A DNA stretch of 64,000 bases from Escherichia coli (GTDB lineage: Bacteria; Pseudomonadota; Gammaproteobacteria; Enterobacterales; Enterobacteriaceae), in assembly GCF_048403405.1 (NCBI RefSeq), contig NZ_CP183129.1, one strand, 5' to 3'. A program made the translations under genes and the position numbers. The notes below the pieces were generated by a model that saw nothing but the letters and a program-made list of their open reading frames with translations, did not search any database and was not told the DNA's origin. The first letter of the stretch is position 1. Each line of letters opens with the position of its first letter. Positions 1 through 43,501 of this stretch are shown in pieces.

Positions 1-1104
1 TCACTCGCTTACGGGATTGCGCAACTTCCTTGCGGCCCACTATTGGATCGTAAAGGCCCACGCCTGATGCTGGGACTGGGGATGTTCTTCTGGTCACTGT
101 TCCAGGCCATGTCTGGCATGGTGCACAGCTTTACGCAGTTCGTGTTGGTGCGTATCGGTATGGGGATTGGTGAAGCGCCGATGAACCCATGTGGCGTAAA
201 AGTCATTAACGACTGGTTCAACATCAAAGAGCGCGGACGCCCGATGGGCTTCTTCAACGCAGCTTCTACCATTGGCGTAGCCGTAAGCCCACCGATTCTG
301 GCAGCGATGATGCTGGTGATGGGCTGGCGCGGGATGTTTATTACCATTGGTGTACTGGGGATTTTTCTCGCCATCGGCTGGTATATGCTCTATCGCAACC
401 GCGAGCACGTAGAACTGACTGCCGTTGAACAAGCTTATCTCAATGCAGGTAGCGTCAATGCCCGCCGAGATCCGCTCAGTTTTGCCGAATGGCGCAGCCT
501 GTTCCGTAACCGCACAATGTGGGGAATGATGCTCGGATTCAGTGGCATCAACTACACTGCGTGGCTGTATCTGGCCTGGCTTCCTGGTTACCTGCAAACA
601 GCCTATAACCTGGATTTAAAAAGCACAGGGTTGATGGCGGCTATCCCTTTCCTGTTTGGGGCTGCCGGGATGCTGGTCAACGGTTACGTTACTGACTGGC
701 TGGTCAAAGGGGGAATGGCTCCGATTAAAAGCCGTAAGATCTGCATTATTGCCGGGATGTTCTGTTCTGCCGCCTTTACGCTGGTCGTACCGCAAGCGAC
801 AACATCCATGACAGCGGTTCTGCTGATTGGCATGGCACTGTTTTGTATTCACTTTGCCGGAACATCCTGCTGGGGCTTGATCCACGTCGCAGTTGCTTCT
901 CGCATGACTGCGTCGGTGGGCAGTATCCAGAACTTTGCCAGCTTCATCTGCGCCTCTTTTGCGCCGATCATTACTGGTTTTATTGTTGATACCACCCACT
1001 CATTCCGTCTGGCACTAATCATCTGCGGTTGCGTCACCGCGGCGGGTGCACTGGCGTACATCTTCCTGGTTCGTCAGCCGATCAACGACCCGCGTAAAGA
1101 TTAA
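1..1104 (+). CDS. lgoT: MFS transporter, L-galactonate transporter LgoT/YjjL (5' end truncated by window edge)
   Basis: Frame 1 is open from position 1 to the TAA at 1102-1104; translation is a multi-helix MFS permease recognised as YjjL/LgoT C-terminal portion; lies next to tsr as in K-12. Confidence 0.8.
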   Translation, partial: SLAYGIAQLPCGPLLDRKGPRLMLGLGMFFWSLFQAMSGMVHSFTQFVLVRIGMGIGEAPMNPCGVKVINDWFNIKERGRPMGFFNAASTIGVAVSPPILAAMMLVMGWRGMFITIGVLGIFLAIGWYMLYRNREHVELTAVEQAYLNAGSVNARRDPLSFAEWRSLFRNRTMWGMMLGFSGINYTAWLYLAWLPGYLQTAYNLDLKSTGLMAAIPFLFGAAGMLVNGYVTDWLVKGGMAPIKSRKICIIAGMFCSAAFTLVVPQATTSMTAVLLIGMALFCIHFAGTSCWGLIHVAVASRMTASVGSIQNFASFICASFAPIITGFIVDTTHSFRLALIICGCVTAAGALAYIFLVRQPINDPRKD

Positions 1105-1112
1105 TCTCCCTA

Positions 1113-1146
1113 TGCCCGATAACATTTTGCTTATCGGGCATTTTTA
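1113..1146. terminator. Hairpin terminator between convergent lgoT and tsr
   Basis: Inverted repeat tgcccgataa / ttatcgggca with 8-nt loop, followed by TTTTTA on the + strand. Confidence 0.5.
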
Positions 1147-1152
1147 TGGCGA

Positions 1153-2817
1153 TTAAAACGTTTCCCAGTTCTCCCCGCTATCTGCCACGGCCATTTTACG
1201 CGGCGCAGCTGGCGTCACGGTTTTTACCACAGCCGATGTTTCACGCTGCTGTTGCTGCTGTTGCTGAATCCGGAACACTGCCACAGCTTCGGTCAGGCGA
1301 CTGGCCTGCTCTTCCAGCGCGGCAGCGGCGGCGGCAGATTCTTCCACCAGTGCGGCGTTCTGTTGAGTTACCCGGTCCATCTCAGCAACCGCTAATCCAA
1401 CCTGATCGATACCACGGCTCTGCTCATCAGAAGCAGAAGCAATTTCGCCCATAATGTCCGTCACGCGGGTCACGGCACTGACAATCTCCGCCATTGTTTC
1501 CCCTGCGCTTTCGACCAGCGTAGAGCCAACATCCACTTTCCCCACCGAGTCTTCAATCAGGCTTTTAATTTCACGAGCCGCCTGGGCGCTGCGCTGGGCC
1601 AGATTACGCACTTCTCCCGCGACCACCGCAAAACCGCGCCCTTGCTCACCCGCACGCGCAGCCTCAACCGCCGCGTTCAAAGCCAGAATATTGGTCTGGA
1701 AGGCAATGCCGTCAATTACGCTGATAATATCGGCGATTTTCTGCGAACTGGTGGAGATATCGCGCATAGTCTGCACCACGTTATCTACCACTTTGCCGCC
1801 GCGTTGCGCCGTTTCAGAAGCACTTAACGCCAGATGGCTGGCCTGACGCGCATTCTCGGCGTTCTGTTTCACCGTTGCGGTCAGTTGCTCCATGCTGGCT
1901 GCCGTCTCTTCCAGCGAAGCGGCCTGTTGCTCGGTGCGCGAAGAGAGATCGTTATTGCCGGTGGCGATTTCGCTGGCACCGCTATAAATGGCATTGGCCC
2001 CGTTGCGCACATCACCGACGGTACGCATCAGCTCTCCCTGCATATGGCGCAAACTCTCTGCCAGTTGCCCCATCTCATTAGAGCCATCCACCTCAATCGG
2101 TTTCACCAGATCGCCGCCTGCAATATGACGAATGCTGTCAATCAGGCGATTCATTGGCGCTACCAACGAGGCTTTAATACCGAACCAGACGGCGAAGATG
2201 ACCGCCAGTACGACGATCATCACGCCCACCAGGATCCACATCGCCTGGCTGTAGGAGGCATTATTATCGCTGACGGCGATATCATAGAGCCGATCGTTTT
2301 GCTCCATGTAAGCCACATACTGCTTCTCGAAACCGTCCTGATATCCCTGGGTCGGCTGATCAAAGAACTCGTTGATTTTGCCTGCACCTAACAGTTGGAT
2401 CAGCTCCGCCAGCGCATTGTGATAAATATCGTAATTACGTTTGATCTCTGCCGCTGCGGCGGTGCTCTGACGCGGGTCACGCGGCAACGCTTCGTAATCC
2501 GCCCAGTTTTTTTCCGCCTGTTTCAGCGAAATACTGGCACTCTGCATCAGCTCAGCAACGGTTGAACCGCTACCAATATTATTCTGATCCATCATGTAGC
2601 GGATACCCGCGCGGTTGAGGGTGTTACGCGTCTGCAACAACGCGACCCAGCTGCCATTCAGCGTGGATTGCTGCTGGCGAATGGTTTGTAAAACAGTGAA
2701 ATTTTCTTTGTCATTCTTTAAGGCATTAAAGAACAGACCGCCTGATGTCAGTTGTAAAAGGCCAAAAACGGCCAAAACCAGCAGTAAGCTGGTCACAATT
2801 TTGATACGTTTTAACAT
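1153..2817 (-). CDS. tsr: Methyl-accepting chemotaxis protein I (serine chemoreceptor)
   Basis: 554-aa ORF; N-terminal TM segment, periplasmic ligand domain, HAMP, conserved MCP signalling domain, C-terminal NWETF pentapeptide; recognised as Tsr. Confidence 0.95.
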
Positions 2818-2847
2818 GTTTTCTCTTTCCTGTGGACCGATGCAAGA

Positions 2848-2874
2848 TTTTCGGCCTGGAAAGGAAAAACTTTA
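2848..2874 (-). promoter_or_regulatory. sigma28 (FliA) class III flagellar promoter for tsr
   Basis: Minus strand reads TAAAGTTT-N11-GCCGAAAA, a near-perfect match to the FliA consensus TAAAGTTT-N11-GCCGATAA, about 30 nt upstream of the tsr start. Confidence 0.6.
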
Positions 2875-2935
2875 TGAAAAGGTGTAACCCGCCATCCATG
2901 GAAAAACCAGGCGCTGGTTATCAGATATTAAAAAG

Positions 2936-3382
2936 TTATTCATTATCGCCCGGGATGTCTTCTTGTCGGGAATTACCCAGAGCAATAAATTCCTCTAACA
3001 GATGGGTTAACTGTTGCATTTTCTCGGCAGTAAACTGAGCTTCAATCTGCCGATAGGCCTCTTCAATCTGTGTCTGAGCGCGGTTATACAGCGCCTGCCC
3101 CTCTTTGGTCAGCGAGATATAGAGCTTCCGCTGATCATTGATCGGCTTTAATCGCAACACTAAACCGTCGCGTTCCATCCGCGTAAGGATCCCGGTCAGG
3201 CTTGGGCGCAAAATGCAGGCGCGATACGCCAGATCGTGAAAATCCATTGATGGGCTTTCCGCCAGAATACGCACGATGCGCCACTGTTGCTCAGTCAAAT
3301 TATGCCGTTTAACGATTGGGCGAAAATAACTCATCGCCGCTTCTCGCGCCTGGAGCAACGCAATGGTTAGAGAGTCGTGCAT
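2936..3382 (-). CDS. hpaR: MarR-family repressor of the homoprotocatechuate (hpa meta-cleavage) operon
   Basis: ORF track gives 175 aa; the internal Met (MHDSLTIALLQ...) gives a 148-aa MarR-type winged-helix protein recognised as HpaR; divergent from hpaG. Confidence 0.85.
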   Translation of the reverse strand: MHDSLTIALLQAREAAMSYFRPIVKRHNLTEQQWRIVRILAESPSMDFHDLAYRACILRPSLTGILTRMERDGLVLRLKPINDQRKLYISLTKEGQALYNRAQTQIEEAYRQIEAQFTAEKMQQLTHLLEEFIALGNSRQEDIPGDNE

Positions 3383-3604
3383 TATCTTTCCCCTGAAAAA
3401 TTCAAAATCATTAATATAGAAACAGTTAATCATCACGTTACCGGGACTGCGCTGCCCCTGCAATTCTTCATTTTATCAAAATTGAGCATGTTTTGTTAAC
3501 TTGCTGATATTTAATATTTTATTATCTTTAAATGTAAATAGTTTGTTAATTAGATCACATTTACATCACTTACTTTTGCCAAACTACGCAATCGGGAATA
3601 AAAG

Positions 3605-3628
3605 TAATCATTAACATATTAATGATTA
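3605..3628. promoter_or_regulatory. Perfect 10-bp inverted repeat, candidate HpaR operator at the hpaG promoter
   Basis: TAATCATTAA-cata-TTAATGATTA, 26-49 bp upstream of the hpaG start; related half-sites AATCATTAAT (3406-3415) and TTAATCATCA (3427-3436) sit next to the hpaR start. Confidence 0.5.
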
Positions 3629-3653
3629 AGATGATCGAATCCGAGGAGTGGTA

Positions 3654-4943
3654 ATGAAAGGCACTATCTTCGCCGTAGCGTTGAACCATCGCAGCCAGCT
3701 TGATGCATGGCAGGAAGCGTTCCAGCAATCCCCCTACAAAACCCCGCCTAAAACTGCGGTCTGGTTTATTAAACCGCGCAATACGGTGATTGGTTGCGGT
3801 GAACCGATTCCCTTTCCACAGGGTGAAAAAGTACTGAGCGGTGCGACTGTTGCGCTGATTGTGGGGAAAACGGCGACGAAAGTACGTGAAGAAGATGCGG
3901 CAGAGTACATCGCCGGATATGCGCTGGCTAACGACGTCAGCCTGCCGGAAGAGAGCTTTTACCGCCCGGCAATCAAAGCAAAATGTCGTGATGGATTCTG
4001 CCCCATTGGCGAAACCGTGGCTCCCAGCAATGTCGATAATCTGACTATCTATACCGAGATCAACGGGCGTCCTGCCGATCATTGGAACACCGCCGATTTA
4101 CAACGTAACGCCGCGCAGTTGCTGAGCGCTCTGAGCGAATTTGCCACGCTGAATCCAGGCGATGCCATTCTGCTCGGCACGCCACAGGCGCGCGTGGAAA
4201 TACAGCCAGGCGATCGCGTGCGTGTTCTCGCAGAAGGTTTCCCGCCACTGGAAAATCCGGTAGTGGACGAACGTGAAGTGACCACGCGCAAGAGCTTCCC
4301 AACGCAGCCACACCCGCACGGCACGCTGTTTGCCCTCGGCCTGAACTACGCCGACCACGCCAGCGAACTGGAATTTAAGCCACCGGAAGAACCGCTGGTG
4401 TTCCTGAAAGCGCCGAATACCCTCACTGGCGATAACCAGACCTCCGTGCGCCCGAACAATATTGAATACATGCACTACGAAGCGGAGCTGGTGGTAGTTA
4501 TTGGCAAGCAGGCGCGTAACGTCAGCGAAGCCGATGCCATGGATTATGTCGCGGGCTACACCGTGTGTAACGACTACGCCATTCGCGACTATCTGGAAAA
4601 CTACTACCGCCCTAACCTGCGGGTAAAAAGCCGCGACGGACTGACGCCGATGCTTTCAACCATCGTGCCGAAAGAGGCGATCCCGGACCCGCATAATCTG
4701 ACCCTTCGCACCTTCGTCAACGGCGAGTTACGCCAGCAAGGCACCACCGCCGATCTGATCTTCAGCGTGCCCTTCCTGATCGCCTACTTAAGCGAATTTA
4801 TGACCCTGAATCCGGGCGACATGATCGCCACCGGCACACCAAAAGGCTTATCTGACGTGGTGCCTGGCGATGAAGTAGTGGTGGAAGTAGAAGGCGTGGG
4901 CCGCCTGGTGAACCGAATTGTGAGTGAGGAAACAGCGAAATGA
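3654..4943 (+). CDS. hpaG: Bifunctional 5-carboxymethyl-2-oxo-hex-3-ene-1,7-dioate decarboxylase / 2-hydroxyhepta-2,4-diene-1,7-dioate isomerase
   Basis: 429 aa from ATG 3654 with GAGGAG RBS at 3644-3649; duplicated FAH-family domain; recognised as HpaG. Confidence 0.9.
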   Translation: MKGTIFAVALNHRSQLDAWQEAFQQSPYKTPPKTAVWFIKPRNTVIGCGEPIPFPQGEKVLSGATVALIVGKTATKVREEDAAEYIAGYALANDVSLPEESFYRPAIKAKCRDGFCPIGETVAPSNVDNLTIYTEINGRPADHWNTADLQRNAAQLLSALSEFATLNPGDAILLGTPQARVEIQPGDRVRVLAEGFPPLENPVVDEREVTTRKSFPTQPHPHGTLFALGLNYADHASELEFKPPEEPLVFLKAPNTLTGDNQTSVRPNNIEYMHYEAELVVVIGKQARNVSEADAMDYVAGYTVCNDYAIRDYLENYYRPNLRVKSRDGLTPMLSTIVPKEAIPDPHNLTLRTFVNGELRQQGTTADLIFSVPFLIAYLSEFMTLNPGDMIATGTPKGLSDVVPGDEVVVEVEGVGRLVNRIVSEETAK

Positions 4944-6406
4944 AAAAAGTAAATCATTGGATCAACGGCAAAAATGTTGCAGGTAACGACTACTTCCAGA
5001 CCACCAATCCGGCAACGGGTGAAGTGCTGGCAGATGTGGCCTCCGGCGGTGAAGCGGAGATCAATCAGGCGGTAGCGGCAGCGAAAGAGGCGTTCCCGAA
5101 ATGGGCCAATCTGCCGATGAAAGAGCGTGCGCGCCTGATGCGCCGTCTGGGCGATCTGATCGACCAGAACGTGCCTGAGATCGCCGCGATGGAAACCGCG
5201 GACACGGGCCTGCCGATCCATCAGACCAAAAATGTATTGATCCCACGCGCTTCTCACAACTTTGAATTTTTCGCGGAAGTCTGCCAGCAGATGAACGGCA
5301 AGACCTATCCGGTTGACGACAAGATGCTCAACTACACGCTGGTGCAACCGGTAGGCGTTTGTGCGCTGGTATCGCCGTGGAACGTGCCGTTTATGACCGC
5401 CACATGGAAGGTCGCGCCGTGTCTGGCGCTGGGCAATACCGCGGTGTTGAAAATGTCGGAACTCTCCCCGCTGACCGCTGACCGCCTGGGTGAGCTGGCG
5501 CTGGAAGCCGGTATTCCGGCGGGCGTGCTGAACGTGGTACAGGGCTACGGCGCAACCGCAGGCGATGCGCTGGTTCGTCATCATGACGTACGTGCCGTGT
5601 CGTTCACCGGCGGTACGGCCACCGGGCGCAACATCATGAAAAACGCCGGGCTGAAAAAATACTCCATGGAACTGGGCGGTAAATCGCCGGTGCTGATTTT
5701 TGAAGATGCCGATATTGAACGCGCGCTGGACGCTGCCCTGTTCACCATCTTCTCGATCAACGGCGAGCGCTGCACCGCCGGTTCGCGCATCTTTATTCAG
5801 CAAAGCATCTACCCGGAATTCGTTAAACGCTTTGCCGAACGCGCCAACCGTCTGCGCGTGGGCGATCCGAACGATCCGAATACCCAGGTTGGGGCGCTTA
5901 TCAGCCAGCAACACTGGGAAAAAGTCTCCGGCTATATTCGTCTCGGCATTGAAGAAGGCGCAACCCTGCTAGCGGGCGGTCCGGATAAACCGTCCGACCT
6001 GCCTGCGCACCTGAAAGGCGGCAACTTCCTGCGCCCAACGGTGCTGGCTGACGTTGATAACCGTATGCGCGTCGCCCAGGAAGAGATTTTCGGGCCGGTC
6101 GCCTGTCTGCTGCCGTTTAAAGACGAAGCTGAAGGTCTGCGCCTGGCAAATGACGTGGAGTATGGCCTCGCGTCGTACATCTGGACGCAGGATGTCAGCA
6201 AAGTGTTACGCCTGGCGCGTGGCATTGAAGCAGGCATGGTGTTCGTCAACACCCAGAACGTGCGCGACCTGCGCCAGCCGTTTGGCGGCGTAAAAGCCTC
6301 CGGCACCGGGCGTGAAGGCGGTGAGTACAGCTTCGAAGTGTTCGCGGAAATGAAGAACGTCTGCATTTCCATGGGCGACCATCCAATTCCGAAATGGGGA
6401 GTCTGA
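4940..6406 (+). CDS. hpaE: 5-carboxymethyl-2-hydroxymuconate semialdehyde dehydrogenase (NAD-dependent aldehyde dehydrogenase)
   Basis: 488 aa; ATGA start/stop overlap with hpaG; aldehyde dehydrogenase family with catalytic Cys region (FSINGERCTAGSR). Confidence 0.9.
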   Translation: MKKVNHWINGKNVAGNDYFQTTNPATGEVLADVASGGEAEINQAVAAAKEAFPKWANLPMKERARLMRRLGDLIDQNVPEIAAMETADTGLPIHQTKNVLIPRASHNFEFFAEVCQQMNGKTYPVDDKMLNYTLVQPVGVCALVSPWNVPFMTATWKVAPCLALGNTAVLKMSELSPLTADRLGELALEAGIPAGVLNVVQGYGATAGDALVRHHDVRAVSFTGGTATGRNIMKNAGLKKYSMELGGKSPVLIFEDADIERALDAALFTIFSINGERCTAGSRIFIQQSIYPEFVKRFAERANRLRVGDPNDPNTQVGALISQQHWEKVSGYIRLGIEEGATLLAGGPDKPSDLPAHLKGGNFLRPTVLADVDNRMRVAQEEIFGPVACLLPFKDEAEGLRLANDVEYGLASYIWTQDVSKVLRLARGIEAGMVFVNTQNVRDLRQPFGGVKASGTGREGGEYSFEVFAEMKNVCISMGDHPIPKWGV

Positions 6407-6407
6407 T

Positions 6408-7259
6408 ATGGGTAAGTTAGCGTTAGCCGCCAAAATCACGCACGTACCGTCGATGTATCTCTCTGAACTGCCAGGGAAAAACCACGGTTGCCGCCAGGGT
6501 GCGATCGACGGGCATAAAGAGATCAGCAAGCGTTGCCGGGAAATGGGCGTCGATACCATTATCGTTTTCGATACTCACTGGCTGGTCAACAGTGCTTATC
6601 ACATCAACTGTGCAGACCATTTTGAAGGCGTCTACACCAGCAACGAGCTGCCGCATTTTATTCGTGACATGACCTACAACTACGAGGGCAACCCGGAGTT
6701 GGGGCAGCTTATTGCCGATGAAGCCTTAAAACTCGGCGTGCGGGCAAAAGCGCACAACATTCCCAGCCTGAAACTGGAATACGGCACGCTGGTGCCAATG
6801 CGCTACATGAATGAAGACAAGCACTTCAAAGTGGTCTCCATTTCGGCTTTCTGCACGGTTCACGATTTTGCCGACAGCCGCAAGCTTGGCGAAGCGATTT
6901 TGAAAGCAATCGAACAGTACGACGGCACCGTGGCGGTCCTTGCCAGCGGTTCGTTATCGCACCGCTTTATTGACGATCAGCGTGCGGAAGAAGGGATGAA
7001 CAGCTACACCCGCGAGTTCGACCGCCAGATGGACGAGCGCGTGGTGAAGCTGTGGCGCGAAGGCCAGTTCAAAGAGTTCTGCAATATGCTGCCGGAGTAC
7101 GCCGACTACTGCTACGGCGAAGGCAATATGCACGACACGGTGATGCTGCTGGGGATGCTCGGCTGGGATAAATACGACGGCAAGGTGGAGTTTATCACCG
7201 AGCTGTTCCCAAGCTCCGGTACTGGTCAGGTTAACGCTGTTTTCCCGCTTCCCGCGTAA
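6408..7259 (+). CDS. hpaD: 3,4-dihydroxyphenylacetate (homoprotocatechuate) 2,3-dioxygenase
   Basis: 283 aa; starts 2 nt after the hpaE stop; recognised as HpaD extradiol dioxygenase. Confidence 0.9.
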   Translation: MGKLALAAKITHVPSMYLSELPGKNHGCRQGAIDGHKEISKRCREMGVDTIIVFDTHWLVNSAYHINCADHFEGVYTSNELPHFIRDMTYNYEGNPELGQLIADEALKLGVRAKAHNIPSLKLEYGTLVPMRYMNEDKHFKVVSISAFCTVHDFADSRKLGEAILKAIEQYDGTVAVLASGSLSHRFIDDQRAEEGMNSYTREFDRQMDERVVKLWREGQFKEFCNMLPEYADYCYGEGNMHDTVMLLGMLGWDKYDGKVEFITELFPSSGTGQVNAVFPLPA

Positions 7260-7268
7260 GGACGTTTT

Positions 7269-7649
7269 ATGCCGCACTTTATCGTTGAATGTACTGAAAA
7301 TATTCGTGAAGAAGCCCGCTTACCTGAGCTGTTTGCCAGTGTTAACACTGCACTGGCGGCGACGGGGATTTTTCCGCTTGGGGGAATACGTAGCCGGGCG
7401 CACTGGATCGATACCTGGCAAATGGCTGATGGCAAGCACGATTACGCCTTTGTGCATATGACGCTAAAAATCGGCAGCGGGCGCAGTCTGGAAAGCCGTC
7501 AGGAAGTGGGCGAAATGGTGTTTGATCTGATTAAAACGCACTTCGCCTCACTGATGGAGAGCCGTTACCTGGCGCTTTCATTTGAGATTGCAGAGCTGCA
7601 CCCGACGTTGAATTTCAAACAGAACAACGTACACGCGTTGTTTAAATAA
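7269..7649 (+). CDS. hpaF: 5-carboxymethyl-2-hydroxymuconate delta-isomerase
   Basis: 126 aa beginning [12 protein letters not shown]; recognised as HpaF (CHM isomerase). Confidence 0.9.
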
Positions 7650-7658
7650 ATTTGTACC

Positions 7659-7690
7659 AGCTTCCAGGCCGGATGATAAGGCGCAGCCGC
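7659..7690. repeat. REP-like palindromic element
   Basis: gccggatgataaggcgcagccgcatccggc imperfect palindrome in the hpaF-hpaH spacer. Confidence 0.5.
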
Positions 7691-7716
7691 ATCCGGCAAT
7701 GCCACAGGATATCGCC

Positions 7717-8520
7717 ATGTTCGATAAACACACCCACACCCTGATCGCCCAGCGTCTGGATCAGGCAGAAAAACAGCGCGAACAGATCCGCGCGATCTCG
7801 CTGGATTACCCGGAGATCACCGTCGAAGATGCCTACGCCGTACAGCGCGAATGGGTCCGCCTGAAAATTGCCGAAGGCCGTACGCTGAAAGGCCACAAAA
7901 TCGGCCTGACCTCGAAAGCGATGCAGGCCAGCTCACAAATCAGCGAACCGGATTACGGCGCGCTGCTGGACGACATGTTCTTCCACGATGGCAGCGATAT
8001 CCCGACCGATCGCTTTATCGTGCCGCGCATTGAAGTGGAGCTGGCTTTCGTGCTGGCAAAACCGCTGCGTGGGCCAAACTGCACGCTGTTCGACGTTTAC
8101 AACGCCACGGACTATGTGATCCCGGCGCTGGAGCTGATCGACGCTCGCTGCCACAACATCGATCCGGAAACCCAGCGCCCGCGTAAAGTGTTCGACACCA
8201 TTTCTGATAACGCCGCCAATGCCGGGGTGATCCTCGGTGGTCGTCCCATTAAGCCCGATGAGTTGGATCTGCGTTGGATCTCCGCCCTGATGTATCGTAA
8301 TGGCGTGATTGAAGAAACTGGCGTCGCCGCTGGCGTGCTGAATCACCCGGCAAACGGCGTGGCCTGGCTGGCGAACAAACTCGCACCGTATGACGTACAA
8401 CTGGAAGCCGGGCAAATCATTCTCGGCGGTTCGTTTACCCGCCCGGTTCCGGCGCGTAAGGGCGACACCTTCCACGTCGATTACGGCAACATGGGCTCCA
8501 TTAGCTGCCGCTTTGTTTAA
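7717..8520 (+). CDS. hpaH: 2-oxo-hept-3-ene-1,7-dioate hydratase
   Basis: 267 aa from the second in-frame ATG ([12 protein letters not shown]...); the ORF track starts 6 codons earlier at 7699. Confidence 0.85.
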
Positions 8521-8530
8521 GGAGAGAACG

Positions 8531-9319
8531 ATGGAAAACAGTTTTAAAGCGGCGCTGAAAGCAGGCCGCCCGCAGATCGGATTATGGCTGGGGCTAAGTA
8601 GCAGCTACAGCGCAGAGTTACTGGCCGGAGCAGGATTCGACTGGTTGTTGATCGACGGTGAGCACGCGCCGAATAACGTGCAAACCGTGCTCACCCAGCT
8701 ACAGGCGATTGCGCCCTACCCCAGCCAGCCGGTAGTACGTCCGTCGTGGAACGATCCGGTGCAAATCAAACAACTGCTGGACGTCGGCACACAAACCTTA
8801 CTGGTGCCGATGGTTCAAAACGCTGACGAAGCCCGTGAAGCGGTACGCGCCACCCGTTATCCCCCCGCCGGTATTCGCGGTGTGGGCAGTGCGCTGGCCC
8901 GCGCCTCGCGCTGGAATCGCATTCCTGATTACCTGCAAAAAGCCAACGATCAAATGTGCGTACTGGTGCAGATCGAAACTCGTGAGGCAATGAAGAACCT
9001 ACCGCAGATTCTGGACGTGGAAGGGGTAGACGGCGTGTTTATCGGCCCGGCGGATCTGAGCGCCGATATGGGTTATGCCGGTAATCCGCAGCACCCGGAA
9101 GTGCAGGCCGCCATTGAACAGGCGATCGTGCAAATCCGTGAAGCGGGCAAAGCTCCGGGGATCCTGATCGCCAATGAGCAACTGGCAAAACGCTACCTGG
9201 AACTGGGCGCGCTATTTGTCGCCGTCGGCGTTGACACCACCCTGCTCGCCCGCGCCGCCGAAGCGCTGGCAGCACGGTTTGGCGCGCAGGCCACGACCGT
9301 TAAGCCCGGCGTGTATTAA
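8531..9319 (+). CDS. hpaI: 2,4-dihydroxyhept-2-ene-1,7-dioate aldolase
   Basis: 262 aa from ATG 8531 with GGAGAG RBS at 8521-8526; the ORF-track start at 8390 is an upstream extension overlapping hpaH. Confidence 0.9.
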
Positions 9320-9395
9320 TGCTGAATGCGCTTATCCGGCTTACAGCAGTACCAAACTGTAGCCGGATAAGGCGTTTACGCCGCATCCGCCATAA
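9320..9395. repeat. REP (repetitive extragenic palindrome) copies
   Basis: tgcgcttatccggcttacagc...gtagccggataaggcgtttacgccgcatccg, the canonical E. coli REP/PU consensus, between hpaI and hpaX. Confidence 0.55.
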
Positions 9396-9436
9396 ATCTT
9401 GTCGTACCCTACAAAAATCCCATTAGAGGAAGAAAA

Positions 9437-10813
9437 ATGAGCGACACCTCACCTGCCATACCGGAAAGTATCGATCCGGCAAATCAGCATAAAACGCTGA
9501 CTGCCGGACAACAGGCGGTTATTAAGAAGCTATTTCGCCGCCTGATCGTCTTTCTGTTCGTGCTGTTTATCTTCTCGTTCCTTGATCGCATCAACATCGG
9601 CTTTGCCGGGCTAACGATGGGACGCGACCTCGGTCTGAGCGCCACCATGTTTGGCCTCGCCACCACCCTGTTCTATGCCGCTTATGTCATCTTCGGCATT
9701 CCCAGCAACATTATGCTGAGTATTGTCGGTGCGCGGCGCTGGATCGCCACCATCATGGTGCTCTGGGGCATCGCCTCTACGGCCACCATGTTTGCCACTG
9801 GCCCCACCAGCTTATACGTACTGCGTATACTGGTTGGCATTACCGAAGCCGGCTTTCTGCCTGGCATTCTGCTGTATTTAACCTTCTGGTTTCCGGCCTA
9901 TTTCCGCGCCCGTGCCAACGCCTTGTTTATGGTAGCAATGCCGGTAACGACAGCGCTGGGATCGATCGTTTCCGGCTACATTTTGTCGCTGGATGGCGTA
10001 ATGGCATTAAAAGGCTGGCAGTGGCTGTTTTTGCTGGAAGGCTTCCCGTCGGTATTACTCGGCGTCATGGTGTGGTTCTGGCTTGATGACTCACCGGACA
10101 AAGCTAAGTGGCTGACGAAAGAAGACAAAAAATGCCTGCAAGAGATGATGGATAACGATCGTCTGACGCTGGTTCAGCCAGAGGGAGCCATCAGTCACCA
10201 CGCCATGCAACAACGCAGCATGTGGCGGGAGATCTTCACTCCGGTGGTGATGATGTATACCCTGGCGTATTTCTGCCTGACCAACACACTTAGTGCAATC
10301 AGCATCTGGACACCGCAGATCCTACAAAGCTTTAATCAGGGCAGCAGTAATATCACCATCGGCCTGCTGGCCGCCGTACCGCAGATTTGTACCATTCTCG
10401 GGATGATCTACTGGAGCCGTCACTCAGATCGCCGCCAGGAACGAAGGCATCACACCGCCCTTCCTTATTTGTTCGCTGCCGCTGGTTGGTTACTGGCTTC
10501 GGCAACTGATCACAACATGATCCAGATGCTGGGGATCATTATGGCTTCGACCGGATCATTCAGCGCAATGGCGATTTTCTGGACAACACCGGATCAGTCC
10601 ATCAGCCTGCGGGCACGAGCGATCGGTATTGCGGTGATCAACGCCACTGGCAACATTGGTTCAGCGTTAAGTCCGTTTATGATCGGCTGGTTGAAAGATC
10701 TGACCGGCAGCTTTAACAGTGGATTGTGGTTTGTTGCCGCGCTGCTGGTGATTGGTGCGGGGATTATCTGGGCAATTCCAATGCAGTCCTCCCGTCCGCG
10801 AGCGACCCCGTAA
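9437..10813 (+). CDS. hpaX: 4-hydroxyphenylacetate permease (MFS)
   Basis: 458 aa, 12-TM MFS-type protein inside the hpa cluster. Confidence 0.9.
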   Translation: MSDTSPAIPESIDPANQHKTLTAGQQAVIKKLFRRLIVFLFVLFIFSFLDRINIGFAGLTMGRDLGLSATMFGLATTLFYAAYVIFGIPSNIMLSIVGARRWIATIMVLWGIASTATMFATGPTSLYVLRILVGITEAGFLPGILLYLTFWFPAYFRARANALFMVAMPVTTALGSIVSGYILSLDGVMALKGWQWLFLLEGFPSVLLGVMVWFWLDDSPDKAKWLTKEDKKCLQEMMDNDRLTLVQPEGAISHHAMQQRSMWREIFTPVVMMYTLAYFCLTNTLSAISIWTPQILQSFNQGSSNITIGLLAAVPQICTILGMIYWSRHSDRRQERRHHTALPYLFAAAGWLLASATDHNMIQMLGIIMASTGSFSAMAIFWTTPDQSISLRARAIGIAVINATGNIGSALSPFMIGWLKDLTGSFNSGLWFVAALLVIGAGIIWAIPMQSSRPRATP

Positions 10814-10822
10814 GGAACGACG

Positions 10823-11713
10823 ATGTGTGACCGTCAGATTGCCAATATTGATATCAGCAAAGAGTACGATGAAAGCCTGGGCACGGACGATGTGCATTAT
10901 CAGTCCTTCGCCCGCATGGCGGCATTTTTTGGCCGCCATATGCTGCCACATCGCCACGAACAGTACTTTCAGATGCATTTCCTCAATAGCGGACAGATTG
11001 AGCTACAGCTTGACGATCATCGCTACTCGGTGGAAGCGCCCCTGTTTGTCCTGACGCCGCCGTCAGTACCTCATGCGTTTATTACGGAGTCTGACGCCGA
11101 CGGTCATGTGTTGACGGTACGGGAAGATCTGATCTGGCCCCTGCTGGAAGTTCTTTATCCGGGCACTCGGGAAACCTTCGGCCTGCCGGGGATTTGCCTG
11201 TCACTGGCAGATAAACCCGACGAACTGGCAGCGCTGGAACACTATTGGCAACTGATAGAGCGGGAATCGGTGGAACAACTGCCTGGACGGGAACACACCC
11301 TGACGTTACTGGCACAGGCAGTATTCACCCTACTGCTGCGTAACGCAAAACTCGACGACCATGCCGCCAGCGGGATGCGCGGAGAATTAAAACTGTTCCA
11401 GCGTTTTAATATGCTGATTGAAAGCCATTTTCATCAGCACTGGACAGTACCGGATTACGCTAACGAACTGCATATCACCGAATCACGTCTCACGGACATC
11501 TGCCGCCGCTTTGCCAACCGTCCGCCAAAACGGTTGATTTTCGACAGGCAGCTGCGAGAAGCCAAGCGGCTGCTGCTGTTTTCTGATAACGCCGTGAACA
11601 ATATTGCCTGGCAACTCGGTTTTAAGGATCCGGCTTATTTTGCGCGCTTTTTTAATCGTTTAGTCGGTTGCTCGCCCAGTGCTTATCGTGCCAAAAAAGT
11701 ACCTGTGACGTGA
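10823..11713 (+). CDS. hpaA: AraC/XylS-family activator of hpaBC
   Basis: 296 aa; C-terminal AraC-type helix-turn-helix (IAWQLGFKDPAYFARFFNRLVGCSPSAYR). Confidence 0.85.
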   Translation: MCDRQIANIDISKEYDESLGTDDVHYQSFARMAAFFGRHMLPHRHEQYFQMHFLNSGQIELQLDDHRYSVEAPLFVLTPPSVPHAFITESDADGHVLTVREDLIWPLLEVLYPGTRETFGLPGICLSLADKPDELAALEHYWQLIERESVEQLPGREHTLTLLAQAVFTLLLRNAKLDDHAASGMRGELKLFQRFNMLIESHFHQHWTVPDYANELHITESRLTDICRRFANRPPKRLIFDRQLREAKRLLLFSDNAVNNIAWQLGFKDPAYFARFFNRLVGCSPSAYRAKKVPVT

Positions 11714-11963
11714 AAATCCCTTAGCCTTAACGGGAAACCAGGCACCACCTGCTATTCCCCTTTCTCCGCCTGGAGCAAGGGGATTTAGTAACGTCAAAAA
11801 TCGCTAAAAGCGACCTCGATCACAAAACCGTACCCGACCTGAAAAGTACCAGCCATTGTCCCAAAAGTGTCTTCCCGTAATCGCCCCTTCAAGCTTCAAT
11901 TGAATAACAAAAACAACACACAAAATTAACAATCGTATTCCGATTAATACTGTAGAGGTCGAC

Positions 11964-13526
11964 ATGAAACCAGAAGATTTCCGCGCCAGTACCCAACGTC
12001 CGTTCACCGGGGAAGAGTATCTGAAAAGCCTGCAGGATGGTCGCGAGATCTATATCTATGGCGAGCGAGTGAAAGACGTCACCACTCATCCGGCATTTCG
12101 TAATGCGGCAGCGTCTGTTGCCCAACTGTACGACGCGCTGCACAAACCGGAGATGCAGGACTCTCTGTGTTGGAACACCGACACCGGCAGCGGCGGCTAT
12201 ACCCATAAATTCTTCCGCGTGGCGAAAAGTGCCGACGACCTGCGCCAGCAACGCGACGCCATCGCTGAGTGGTCACGCCTGAGCTATGGCTGGATGGGCC
12301 GTACCCCAGACTACAAAGCCGCTTTCGGTTGCGCACTGGGCGCGAATCCGGGCTTTTACGGTCAGTTCGAGCAGAACGCCCGTAACTGGTACACCCGTAT
12401 TCAGGAAACTGGCCTCTACTTTAACCACGCGATTGTTAACCCACCGATCGATCGTCATTTGCCGACCGATAAAGTGAAAGACGTTTACATCAAACTGGAA
12501 AAAGAGACTGACGCCGGGATTATCGTCAGCGGTGCGAAAGTGGTTGCCACCAACTCGGCGCTGACTCACTACAACATGATTGGCTTCGGCTCGGCACAAG
12601 TGATGGGCGAAAACCCGGACTTCGCACTGATGTTCGTTGCGCCAATGGATGCCGATGGCGTGAAATTAATCTCCCGCGCCTCTTATGAGATGGTCGCGGG
12701 TGCTACCGGCTCCCCGTACGACTACCCGCTCTCCAGCCGCTTCGATGAGAACGATGCGATTCTGGTGATGGATAACGTGCTGATCCCATGGGAAAACGTG
12801 CTGATCTACCGCGATTTTGATCGCTGCCGTCGCTGGACGATGGAAGGCGGTTTCGCCCGTATGTATCCGCTGCAAGCCTGTGTACGCCTGGCAGTGAAAC
12901 TCGACTTCATTACGGCACTGCTGAAAAAATCACTCGAATGTACCGGCACCCTGGAGTTCCGTGGTGTGCAGGCCGATCTCGGTGAAGTGGTGGCGTGGCG
13001 CAACACCTTCTGGGCATTGAGTGACTCGATGTGTTCAGAAGCGACACCATGGGTCAACGGTGCTTATTTACCGGATCATGCCGCACTGCAAACCTATCGC
13101 GTACTGGCACCAATGGCCTACGCGAAGATCAAAAACATTATCGAACGCAACGTTACCAGTGGCCTGATCTATCTCCCTTCCAGTGCCCGTGACCTGAACA
13201 ATCCGCAGATCGACCAGTATCTGGCGAAGTATGTGCGCGGTTCGAATGGTATGGATCACGTCCAGCGCATCAAGATCCTCAAACTGATGTGGGATGCCAT
13301 TGGCAGCGAGTTTGGTGGTCGTCACGAGCTGTATGAAATCAACTACTCCGGTAGCCAGGATGAGATTCGCCTGCAGTGTCTGCGCCAGGCACAAAGCTCC
13401 GGCAATATGGACAAGATGATGGCGATGGTTGATCGCTGCCTGTCGGAATACGACCAGAACGGCTGGACTGTGCCGCACCTGCACAACAACGACGATATCA
13501 ACATGCTGGATAAGCTGCTGAAATAA
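11964..13526 (+). CDS. hpaB: 4-hydroxyphenylacetate 3-monooxygenase, oxygenase component
   Basis: 520 aa beginning MKPEDFRASTQRPFTGEEYLKSL; recognised as HpaB. Confidence 0.95.
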   Translation: MKPEDFRASTQRPFTGEEYLKSLQDGREIYIYGERVKDVTTHPAFRNAAASVAQLYDALHKPEMQDSLCWNTDTGSGGYTHKFFRVAKSADDLRQQRDAIAEWSRLSYGWMGRTPDYKAAFGCALGANPGFYGQFEQNARNWYTRIQETGLYFNHAIVNPPIDRHLPTDKVKDVYIKLEKETDAGIIVSGAKVVATNSALTHYNMIGFGSAQVMGENPDFALMFVAPMDADGVKLISRASYEMVAGATGSPYDYPLSSRFDENDAILVMDNVLIPWENVLIYRDFDRCRRWTMEGGFARMYPLQACVRLAVKLDFITALLKKSLECTGTLEFRGVQADLGEVVAWRNTFWALSDSMCSEATPWVNGAYLPDHAALQTYRVLAPMAYAKIKNIIERNVTSGLIYLPSSARDLNNPQIDQYLAKYVRGSNGMDHVQRIKILKLMWDAIGSEFGGRHELYEINYSGSQDEIRLQCLRQAQSSGNMDKMMAMVDRCLSEYDQNGWTVPHLHNNDDINMLDKLLK

Positions 13527-13543
13527 CGCAGCAGGAGGTTAAG

Positions 13544-14056
13544 ATGCAATTAGATGAACAACGCCTGCGCTTTCGTGACGCGATGGCCAGCCTGTCGGCA
13601 GCGGTAAATATTATCACCACCGAGGGCGACGCCGGACAATGCGGGATTACGGCAACGGCCGTCTGCTCGGTCACGGATACACCACCATCGCTGATGGTGT
13701 GCATTAACGCCAACAGTGCGATGAACCCGGTTTTTCAGGGCAACGGCAAGTTGTGCGTCAACGTCCTCAACCATGAGCAGGAACTGATGGCACGCCACTT
13801 CGCGGGCATGACGGGCATGGCGATGGAAGAGCGTTTTAGCCTCTCATGCTGGCAAAAAGGTCCGCTGGCGCAGCCGGTGCTGAAAGGTTCGCTGGCCAGT
13901 CTTGAAGGTGAGATCCGCGATGTGCAGGCAATTGGCACACATCTGGTGTATCTGGTGGAGATTAAAAACATCATCCTCAGTGCAGAAGGTCACGGACTTA
14001 TCTACTTTAAACGCCGTTTCCATCCGGTGATGCTGGAAATGGAAGCTGCGATTTAA
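13544..14056 (+). CDS. hpaC: 4-hydroxyphenylacetate 3-monooxygenase, NAD(P)H-flavin reductase component
   Basis: 170 aa flavin reductase directly downstream of hpaB. Confidence 0.9.
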   Translation: MQLDEQRLRFRDAMASLSAAVNIITTEGDAGQCGITATAVCSVTDTPPSLMVCINANSAMNPVFQGNGKLCVNVLNHEQELMARHFAGMTGMAMEERFSLSCWQKGPLAQPVLKGSLASLEGEIRDVQAIGTHLVYLVEIKNIILSAEGHGLIYFKRRFHPVMLEMEAAI

Positions 14057-14062
14057 GCTCCA

Positions 14063-14097
14063 GCCCCTTCACGCATTCGTCGAAGGGGCATTTTTAT
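14063..14097 (+). terminator. Rho-independent terminator after hpaC
   Basis: Stem gcccctTC / GAaggggc with a 11-nt loop, followed by TTTTTATT. Confidence 0.6.
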
Positions 14098-14141
14098 TGT
14101 GATCTCAATCACATATCCACCCGATGAATAATTCTTGCCCA

Positions 14142-14170: not shown

Positions 14171-14448
14171 GTCCCTAAAATAACCACTCAGTTATTTACC
14201 TTACTTTACGCGCGCGTAACTCTGGCAACATCACTGCAGGATAGCGGTCAATTTACCTCCTCAAACGCAACGCAAACCTAGAACGGCTTCGGCCTATGAT
14301 TAACAAATTACTCTATGGATTTTGGTTTGCAGGAAGGCAGCAAGTGAGTGAATCCCCGGGAGCTTACAACAGTAAGTGACAGGGGTGAACGAACGCAGCT
14401 GCCGCACCTGTAAGCCAAAAGACGACGAGTAAAATGCCAGGTTTTACT

Positions 14449-17896: not shown

Positions 17897-20437
17897 TTAT
17901 CTCTGAACGTGCAACACTTCCTGCGACTCCTTATGCGCCTCCACATCCTGCTTCGTTAACCAGAGCGACTTACGGCCAAAATTTTCGTACATTTTCAGCT
18001 GATCTTCATAGTGCTTATCAACTGTTCCATCGGGAGCAATAAACCCACTCTGACCGGGTGCGACCACATCCCAGGCAAGCACAGGACGATCGCTTGTCGT
18101 TGGTGAGAAAACAATCATATCGTTTTCTGTTCCACGGTTTTGATACTCCGCCTGATGACGCGTTTCTTCCGCTGCGGCCTGCGGTACACCAAAGAAATTA
18201 TTTGCCCGGAACGTTAAGGCCATTGCAGGTGTTTTCCAGTTACTCACATTATTGCCATAGCGTTTGGAAAGAGTCTCCCAGGTATCTTCCAGCGCAGCCA
18301 ACACAACCTCCTGCTGTGGTTTCCCAGCAAACAGATCAACCGCCTGTGGGATTGGTGATTTGTCTCCCTGCACCGCCTCATACAAAATTTTTGCTCCAAC
18401 ACTTATATTCAGCGAACCAGTTGGGCCGTCCTGGGTTGTTTCGTAGCCACTGGCGCTGTACCACTTATCAAATGGCATAGGTACGGCAGCCACTACGGTA
18501 CGCTTCAACATACTGGTCAGCCAAACGTTCAGGATGGCAGAGCCTGGCTGCTGCCAGGTTTTACCATCATCATTAAGCAAATTGATGCCATCCCAACGTG
18601 TTAATGTTTCTACCAACTGACGACGCGGATCGCTCTGTGTCAAACCAGATGTCGCTGCTTGCAGAGTAGGTAAAAAAAGCCTCAGGTTAAGATCCTGACG
18701 ACTGGTTTGGCGAATAACATCCCATGCCTGATCAGCAGTTAAGCGTGGCTTTTGCTCAAGCAGTCGGTCGATCTCCGTAACGCGATCTGCACCACCCCAC
18801 AAAAAGGCAAACAGATCTGAAGCGGGATAATCTTTTTGGGGAGAATTGTTCCAGTTAGCAATATATCCCGACTGGGGGTTATACACCTTAGGGTTCATTT
18901 CAAAAGGCAATAGCCCTTTCCAGTCCCATTTTCCCGTACCAGGAACGGGTAATCGCGGATCATGGCCTGATTGACGATCTGGATAAGCACCAGTATGAAC
19001 ATAACCAATATTGCCGTTTACATCAGCATAGTACCAGTTGATGGTCAGTGCTTGTTTCGCTGCCTGCTGTGTCCACTCCTGCCAATTTTTGGCCTTCATC
19101 TGATGAGTCCAGGCCAGCAAAGACGCCACCTCTTTACCATCCCATGCGCGGGATTTAGCGTAAGCCGTTTGTGTCGTCTGGTCAGTTTGGAGAATGTTGC
19201 CATGCACCGTACGCCAGACAGTAAAGGTCTCTGCCTGACCATTTTTCACCGTAATGGTTTCCTCACGGCTTAACATTTTCACCCACTTACCATTATGCAA
19301 GTAGTAGCCTGGTTTCTCTGCCGACAGCCGTTCAGCAAAAATATCGACATCATCGCCGAAACCTGCCGTTGATCCCCAGGAAATCACACCATTATGACCA
19401 AAAACCAGCCCAGGATAGGCAAATGGTGTATTGCCAGTGACATCATAACCAGCACCGTGCAGACCAATACCATAAGTATACGCAGGCGCATACCAGCCAA
19501 ACTGCGGACCATTTACCATGATTGCTTTCGCATCCTGGGCTTTGCTTTTGCCGATCACCCACATATTGCTGGTCGTTGGATACCCCGCCAGACCATTGGC
19601 ACCACCCTGTGCAAATTGTGCAGCAATAGTTTCCCGGTTCTTCCCTGCTGTTAACGCCAGCAGTGCGCCATCCGCCCCTTTTGCTGGTCGGTCAAGCATT
19701 GGTGCAGGTAAATCGTAGCGTGGCAACAGAGCTGCTGTTTGCGAGTTTTGCTGATTAAATTTAAGTGGGTAGTTACTCTCTTGTACGGCAATAGTGGTTG
19801 GCGCTGATGGGTTTACCAGCCATTTCAACTGATTAAATACCGCCATGCCTTGTGATACACCATATTTATCTTTTAAAGCCGTTAGCAGTGCCAGATTATC
19901 AATTTCGCTAGTGCTATCAGAGAAGCGGTTTGCCATGGTGCCCACAAATATCATCGCGACATCAAACGGTTCCCAGCGCTTAGGAGTAAAGCCAAATGTA
20001 TTAAACTGTTTTGGTAAGAGCGTCTCTGGATTGGTATTTACCTTATCAATCCAGGCATTCATTCCATCAGCGTAGCCTTGCAGAATGGACATATCCTCTG
20101 GGGAAAGGGCAGCAATTTGCGCCCGGATAGCATCCGGCCAGTAGTTACGACGGATATCTTTATCAAATTTCACAAAATCTTTGCCAAGCACTTCCGCGAC
20201 AGTCCCTTGAGTACTGCGACGTGCCATTTCCATCTGAAAAAGGCGATCTTGTGCTACTACATAGCCATAGCCATAAAATAGGTGCCATGTATCATTGGCA
20301 TAAATATGCGGCATGCCGTATTCATCGCGAACAATCTTTATCTCACTTGACGACTGCTCAGCCAGTGCAGGTAAGCTCCAATAATACATCAGGGAAGCAG
20401 TAACACAGTTCACGATCATACGATTTCTATTTTTCAT
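17897..20437 (-). CDS. pac: Penicillin G acylase precursor (Ntn hydrolase; signal peptide, alpha subunit, spacer, beta subunit)
   Basis: 846 aa; signal peptide; beta-subunit N-terminal nucleophile motif SNMWVIGKS; recognised as E. coli penicillin amidase. Confidence 0.9.
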
Positions 20438-42589: not shown

Positions 42590-43501
42590 ATGGATGACTG
42601 TGGTGCGGTTTTGCATAATATTGAAACAAAATGGCTTTATGATTTTCTGACCCTGGAAAAATGCCGCAACTTTTCCCAGGCGGCAGTCAGTCGCAACGTC
42701 TCGCAACCGGCATTCAGCCGCCGCATCCGTGCACTGGAACAGGCGATTGGCGTTGAATTATTTAACCGCCAGGTGACGCCGCTGCAACTCTCGGAACAAG
42801 GGAAAATCTTTCATTCGCAGATCCGCCATCTGTTGCAACAGTTAGAAAGCAACCTGGCAGAGCTGCGTGGCGGCAGCGATTATGCGCAACGTAAAATCAA
42901 GATTGCCGCTGCACACTCTCTTTCCCTCGGTCTGTTACCGTCCATTATCAGCCAGATGCCGCCGCTCTTTACCTGGGCGATTGAAGCCATTGATGTCGAT
43001 GAAGCGGTCGATAAACTGCGTGAAGGGCAAAGTGACTGTATTTTTTCCTTTCACGACGAAGATTTGCTGGAAGCGCCGTTTGACCACATTCGCTTATTTG
43101 AATCTCAATTGTTCCCCGTCTGCGCCAGTGACGAACACGGAGAAGCACTGTTTACCCTCGCGCAGCCACACTTTCCGTTACTGAATTACAGCCGCAACTC
43201 CTACATGGGGCGATTGATTAATCGCACCCTGACGCGCCACAGCGAGTTAAGTTTCAGCACCTTTTTTGTCTCTTCGATGAGCGAGCTATTAAAGCAGGTT
43301 GCCCTCGACGGCTGTGGGATTGCCTGGCTGCCGGAATACGCCATCCAACAAGAAATTCGCAGCGGGCAGCTCGTTGTACTGAATCGGGAAGAACTGGTGA
43401 TCCCGATTCAGGCCTACGCATACAGGATGAACACCCGTATGAATCCCGTTGCCGAACGCTTCTGGCGTGAACTGCGCGAACTGGAGATTGTGCTTAGCTG
43501 A
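42590..43501 (+). CDS. hypT: LysR-family hypochlorite-responsive transcription factor
   Basis: 303 aa; N-terminal LysR HTH ([29 protein letters not shown]); recognised as YjiE/HypT. Confidence 0.85.

Follow-up and report, generated by a model that had tools for sequence, protein, structure and literature searches.

The flagellar genes of Escherichia coli are expressed as a cascade, in which FlhDC turns on the class 2 operons, including fliA, FlgM keeps FliA (sigma-28) inactive until the hook-basal body is finished and exports FlgM, and free FliA directs RNA polymerase to the class 3 promoters. The FliA promoter of tsr, the gene of the serine chemoreceptor, has been known since the late 1980s: Helmann and Chamberlin reportedly predicted it in 1987, and Arnosti and Chamberlin are said to have transcribed it in vitro with the sigma-F holoenzyme in 1989. 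Genome-wide mapping followed in 2014, and nothing in what we describe is new in this respect.

In K-12 the tsr promoter carries a FliA ChIP-seq peak of 94 ‘fold above threshold’, the third of 52 sites and exceeded only by the peaks of fliC (110) and motA (101), and deleting fliA significantly lowers tsr RNA, which measures 630 in motile MG1655 but 9 in the mutant (Fitzgerald et al., 2014; PMC4183435). This corresponds to an about 70-fold dependence on fliA, with ~1.4% of the RNA left in the deletion. The yjiY-tsr spacer is also recovered in vitro, by genomic SELEX with reconstituted RNAP-RpoF (FliA) holoenzyme (Shimada et al., 2017; PMC5493296). A CRP site lies 132.5 bp upstream of the K-12 tsr promoter and was found not to act directly on tsr expression (Hollands et al., 2010; PMC2859248).

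Other chemoreceptor genes offer close comparisons. With the sigma-28 consensus written as TAAAGTTT-N11-GCCGATAA, as Hollands et al., 2010 (PMC2859248) give it, the promoter of tar (meche operon), which is the consensus sigma-28 promoter of mutational and cryo-EM work, has the same TAAAGTTT as tsr, the same 11-bp spacer and the same GCCGA start of the -10, and likewise serves a chemoreceptor gene. It differs in having the T of the full consensus GCCGATAA where tsr has A, and in being followed by an operon of six genes, with tar first, in place of a monocistronic gene. The aer and trg promoters are also sigma-28 promoters of chemoreceptor/aerotaxis genes, and the aer -10, GCCGACAT, is similarly without the consensus T. 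Unlike tsr, however, the aer and trg promoters depend on CRP bound at -49.5, and their -35 boxes are weaker (Hollands et al., 2010; PMC2859248).

Sequence and position of the promoter

The window is the whole 64-kb stretch of E. coli DNA that was analysed. Its minus strand reads ...ttttcaTAAAGTTTttcctttccagGCCGAAAAtcttgcatcggtccacaggaaagagaaaacATG, which contains, in this order, the -35 octamer TAAAGTTT (2874..2867, minus strand), identical to the sigma-28 consensus in 8/8 bases, the 11-nt spacer ttcctttccag (2866..2856, minus strand) and the -10 octamer GCCGAAAA (2855..2848, minus strand), with 7/8 consensus bases, the GC and the essential CGA core both being intact. The sole deviation from TAAAGTTT-N11-GCCGATAA is a T to A change in the sixth base of the -10 octamer, at window position 2850. 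The first-pass annotation of this DNA had placed a FliA motif at 2874..2848 on the minus strand, departing from the consensus at a single position; on re-reading both the coordinates and the sequence were reproduced, and the A for T at 2850 was the only departure found.

The end of the -10 octamer is separated by 30 nt from the ATG of tsr at 2817, and promoter and gene are co-oriented. The open reading frame (2817..1153, minus strand, 554 aa), annotated as tsr in RefSeq, scores 1225 bits against the Tsr equivalog PRK15041 of NCBIfam (cut-off 947) and passes the threshold of no other family, which bears out the earlier claim that the motif is found directly upstream of tsr. E. coli CFSAN018748, the closest complete genome used here for annotation, matches this stretch with 100% identity and has the two genes annotated as hpaR and tsr. 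The boxes, their spacing, their position and their conservation (described below) all agree, on the sequence level, with an enterobacterial sigma-28 class 3 promoter.

The 28-mer TAAAGTTTTTCCTTTCCAGGCCGAAAAT is letter-for-letter the motif of the K-12 tsr FliA ChIP-seq site (Fitzgerald et al., 2014; PMC4183435, Table 2), and the gene downstream is the same. Between a point 4 bp before the -35 and the ATG, the two strains differ in one base only, next to the start codon, where the window has aaaAC and K-12 has aaaCC. With this 28-mer identical, the K-12 RNA values given above confirm the earlier assignment of tsr as a class III chemotaxis gene, and we infer that the present strain would behave like K-12.

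The 5' UTR (2839..2818, minus strand) contains the Shine-Dalgarno-like sequence AGGAAAGAG at 2831..2823, and in the block 2831..2818, 8/14 alignment columns are invariant across genera. Transcription is predicted to start at C2842, A2841 or T2840 (minus strand), that is, 6–8 nt after the -10 octamer. The aer start mapped by primer extension is the sixth base after the octamer (Hollands et al., 2010; PMC2859248), and the position of the K-12 CRP site at -132.5 from the tsr promoter implies a +1 at the base equivalent to 2842, while the numbering of the tar promoter in the structure paper (Shi et al., preprint) would shift +1 two bases downstream. No tsr entry turned up in the supplementary data of Kim et al., 2012 or Cho et al., 2014, and Zhao, 2007 names tsr just as a known member of the regulon. 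No Rfam family matched anywhere in the window, neither a known leader RNA nor an sRNA. Two plus-strand open reading frames in the area, 2615..2887 and 2832..3038, are antisense to tsr and hpaR, have no support of any kind and were rejected.

Significance of the match

A pattern search of both strands of the 64 kb for sites with at most one mismatch to the consensus returned a single site, the one upstream of tsr, and such sites appeared in 0/100 dinucleotide shuffles. When up to three mismatches are allowed, the window has 2 sites versus 0.71 expected, a count no different from expectation, so the looser matches are uninformative and only the one-mismatch site carries information. For a graded measure we used a 28-column weight matrix made from 50 of the FliA ChIP-seq sites (Fitzgerald et al., 2014, Table 2), with tsr and its neighbour site excluded. 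The tsr site scored 20.5–20.6 bits, the highest value on either strand of the window (16.6 for the runner-up), and came in 8th place among the 52 known FliA sites. The maxima of 200 shuffles averaged 14.9 bits and the largest was 19.8, with 0/200 reaching 20.5. The site was proposed in the first pass as a useful internal control for promoter reading in this window, and it does serve as a positive control, the reading being accurate to the base; its value lies there, the window being an ordinary stretch of E. coli chromosome.

The runner-up, TAAAGAGCGGCGGCATCTGGCTGATAAT (42944..42971, minus strand, 16.6 bits), is antisense within the open reading frame of a LysR-family regulator (42590..43501, plus strand). 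We rejected it as a promoter, as it sits inside coding sequence and 33/200 shuffles reach its score. The matrix matches at 28227, 31241 and 31289 (~15 bits) were rejected likewise, being at chance level and inside coding sequence. The area around the last two contains a tandem repeat (31187..31349) with a period of 24/48 bp, 6.5 or 3.2 copies and 84–87% matches; each of its units has ACCGATAAA, which produces three chance matches to the FliA matrix, of 13–15 bits, at 48-bp spacing. By homology, the repeat lies in a gene whose counterpart in a related strain is annotated as encoding a pentapeptide-repeat protein.

Conservation across genera

Species-representative genomes were searched for the first ten codons of Tsr, written as a degenerate pattern, so that the sequence upstream of the ATG was left unconstrained. 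This gave 19 loci, from Escherichia, Salmonella, Citrobacter, Kluyvera and Pseudocitrobacter. Together with the window, one K-12-type genome and the E. coli copy that diverged most among those seen, they make up a set of 22 sequences. The -35 TAAAGTTT is invariant in all of them (22/22, five genera). The spacer is 11 nt long in 22/22 loci, although it occurs in 14 distinct sequences and only 1/11 of its columns is invariant. The -10 reads GCCGA[A/C]AA, with GCCGAAAA in 14/22 and GCCGACAA in 8/22, so that 7/8 columns are invariant. Outside the boxes little is kept: 0/43 aligned columns are invariant upstream of the -35, and 2/16 between the -10 and the Shine-Dalgarno block. Overall, 15/16 columns in the boxes versus 3/70 in the other non-coding positions are invariant (Fisher p = 6e-13, an indicative value only, as the sequences are phylogenetically related and the columns were treated as independent). 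Two fixed boxes with a fixed gap and free sequence elsewhere is the pattern that a sigma factor reads. Independently of the K-12 data, the alignment shows that selection has kept the boxes and the distance between them.

Within E. coli, the 73-bp promoter-leader segment is found at >=90% identity in 4874/5426 complete genomes, and the exact 36-mer in 2389/5426. Among the E. coli variants inspected the differences fall in the spacer or the leader, never in the boxes, and even the most divergent copy keeps both octamers.

At two of the loci, in Kluyvera genomosp. 3 YDC799 and Citrobacter koseri NCTC10786, the tsr frame is broken after ~30 codons and the promoter boxes are intact. These breaks are due either to a frameshift or to an assembly error; in NCTC10786 btsT is fragmented too (tblastn), pointing to indel errors in the assembly.

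The one variable base of the -10 deserves comment. The consensus T at the sixth position is found in 0 of the 22 tsr promoters, which have A (14) or C (8), whereas 48/52 of the E. coli FliA ChIP-seq sites carry the T; among the strongly bound sites, A is unique to tsr. In the structure of the sigma-28 initiation complex (Shi et al., preprint), the contacts of region 2 with CGATAA are to C, G, A and a later A of the non-template strand, with none listed for the T, and -35 recognition is comparatively weak; mutation of the CGA core abolishes the activity of the aer promoter (Hollands et al., 2010; PMC2859248). The mismatch at 2850 thus falls on a base without a listed contact, which fits the very strong ChIP signal in spite of the imperfect match. 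One might speculate that the non-T base is maintained by selection and sets how strongly, or when, Tsr is made compared with the other receptors, as in the Tsr:Tar ratio, but we consider this improbable. Shared ancestry, together with a structurally uncontacted position, explains the absence of T equally well and is the simplest explanation.

Upstream boundary of the promoter

The upstream side is where the window departs from K-12. In K-12, tsr is preceded by the divergent btsT (yjiY), with the strong CRP site at -132.5 in between, whereas here an 11.2-kb hpa cluster is inserted and the upstream neighbour is the co-oriented hpaR (3382..2936, minus strand), which ends 118 bp before tsr. HpaR was identified with TIGR02337 (201 bits, cut-off 121), in agreement with RefSeq; the gene is context and stays outside the promoter. 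The inserted segment (~2879..14095) comprises hpaR, hpaGEDFHI, hpaX, hpaA and hpaBC, and K-12-type genomes have ~110 bp of unrelated sequence in its place. A 601-bp hpaR-tsr query is covered to >=80% in 2070/5426 complete E. coli genomes, and we take these as the genomes that have the hpa segment. Altogether at least three upstream contexts exist in E. coli: co-oriented hpaR, divergent btsT (K-12) and a hypothetical gene (strain 23CRST011).

In every comparison of the three contexts, homology begins 1–5 bp upstream of TAAAGTTT. The megablast alignments of hpa-lacking genomes start at window positions 2880–2875 (query 321–326), in agreement with the pairwise alignment to a K-12-type genome, and we accordingly set the upstream limit of the conserved unit at 2879..2875 (minus strand), where ttca is shared before the -35. 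One hpa junction is therefore ~5 bp upstream of the tsr -35; the other is at ~14095, at the CRP site before btsT. This site, TGTGATCTCAATCACA (14098..14113), is next to btsT and aligns with the CRP site of K-12, but it is now ~11.3 kb away from tsr. The tsr-hpaR spacer (2818..2935) was found to contain no CRP-like site (TGTGA-N6-TCACA, up to 2 mismatches), and a CRP-activated sigma-28 promoter of the aer/trg type was rejected, there being no CRP site near -49.5.

Since all three contexts break within 5 bp of the -35, the core promoter is, by this comparison of genomes, self-contained: the tsr promoter is a core element of ~35 bp, not one of the CRP-assisted aer/trg type. Everything upstream of about -37 has been replaced several times by rearrangement, with the promoter untouched. 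This fits the notion of sigma-28 class 3 promoters as self-contained and activator-independent, and agrees with the published absence of any effect of CRP on tsr.

Other rearrangements were seen in this area. Compared to a K-12-type genome, the window has an insertion of ~100 bp at ~14320..14425 (plus strand), after the promoter region of btsT and before the ATG of this gene (14441). Its core, GTGAATCCCCGGGAGCTTACAACAGTAAGTGACAGGGGTGAACG, resembles an ERIC/IRU enterobacterial repetitive intergenic element, and Rfam gave no match to it. In E. coli ES9 (NZ_CM184323.1, 2501..3617) an IS5-like ISKpn26 is inserted after the third tsr codon; the annotation of this genome has neither the remaining tsr nor lgoT, lgoR before lgoD, and the intact, orphan FliA promoter faces the IS element.

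Proposed mechanism and alternative explanations

We propose that RNA polymerase with FliA (sigma-28) recognises 2874..2848 (minus strand) as the core promoter of tsr, and put the probability of the whole explanation at roughly 0.96. Region 4 of the sigma factor would bind TAAAGTTT, and region 2 would bind the composite -10 GCCGAAAA 11 bp downstream, where the GC and the CGA core are expected to be the critical bases. Starting 6–8 nt after the -10, at about 2842–2840, the transcript would have a leader of ~24 nt with a Shine-Dalgarno sequence before the ATG at 2817. An upstream activator site would not be needed. Because FliA is made from a class 2 operon and held by FlgM until the hook-basal body is done, Tsr and the other chemotaxis proteins would be produced only at a late stage of flagellar assembly. 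The genes of the regulators themselves (fliA, flgM, flhDC) are outside the 64-kb window.

How else could the two boxes be explained? Short two-box motifs arise by chance, and the number of sites with up to three mismatches (2 against 0.71 expected) would be in keeping with a mere likeness to the consensus, devoid of promoter function. However, none of the shuffles yields a site with at most one mismatch or with 20.5 bits or more, both boxes are invariant in five genera amid scrambled flanks, and the FliA ChIP-seq, the SELEX and the fliA-deletion RNA data all concern the identical sequence, so that a coincidence is extremely improbable. Conservation by itself does not tell which factor reads a sequence, and the boxes might in principle be kept as the site of another regulator or as an element of the leader RNA, with FliA binding being incidental. 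Two octamers around a gap of fixed 11-bp length but free sequence look neither like the site of a dimeric regulator nor like an RNA helix, though, and the Rfam-free window and the spacer devoid of CRP-like sites offer no other candidate. The boxes are also upstream of the predicted start and would therefore not be part of the RNA; we give such a role next to no credence.

A different question is whether, in a strain carrying the hpa genes, the FliA promoter is one of two inputs, with a substantial share of tsr expression FliA-independent, coming by read-through from hpaR or from a sigma-70 promoter in the 3' end of hpaR. The co-oriented hpaR, with its end 118 bp from tsr, makes this conceivable. 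The terminator scan of 2500..3300 listed no terminator at the hpaR end, and the one hairpin there, AACCAG-cgc-CTGGTT followed by a run of five T (2919..2902, minus strand), with a predicted 6-bp helix, is weak, its folding energy being no better than that of shuffles (z -0.23); from its sequence it is possibly an hpaR terminator insulating tsr. There is also a sigma-70-like site at 2969..2942 (minus strand), but it is at chance level, with 1 found versus 1.0 expected in the scan of 2500..3300. Further against a second major input, hpaR is a low-level regulator gene, the K-12 fliA deletion retains only the ~1.4% of tsr RNA mentioned above, and the core promoter and leader differ from those of K-12 by the single base next to the ATG. 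A substantial contribution of this kind is hence very unlikely, although the co-orientation of hpaR and the weakness of the hairpin mean that a little FliA-independent read-through into tsr is possible in hpa-carrying strains. The FliA promoter as the driver of tsr thus remains our preferred explanation.

Downstream end of tsr and other features of the window

The K-12 data include a second, weak FliA ChIP-seq site in the neighbourhood, described as ‘tsr/yjiZ convergent’, with a score of 3 (Fitzgerald et al., 2014; PMC4183435). In the window it is found at 1096..1123 (plus strand), with one mismatch, in the segment 1096..1141 (plus strand) that spans the region between the ends of lgoT (1104) and tsr (1153). 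A palindromic hairpin, ATGCCCGATAA-n8-TTATCGGGCAT, followed by TTTTT, has the -10-like GCCCGATAA of this site as its 5' arm. The hairpin is strong (dG -16.7 kcal/mol, z -4.1; 0/200 shuffles fold as well) and, from its sequence, looks like the terminator shared by lgoT and tsr. As the stem is palindromic, CCGATAA appears on both strands, and the weak FliA signal may be a by-product of the terminator sequence. A transcript from this site would be antisense to the 3' end of tsr. The CCGATAA-bearing hairpin is also present in Escherichia sp. E1V33.

Further along the window, after yjiA, is a gene for a pac-like penicillin amidase of 846 aa (17897..20437, minus strand; PF01804, 464 bits). The combination of hpa and pac in one neighbourhood is reminiscent of E. 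coli W. The pac position is in the variable ‘immigration control’ region, where CFSAN018748 instead has ~10.5 kb with genes for restriction and defence (HNH endonuclease, a type I R-M system, symE and GmrSD).
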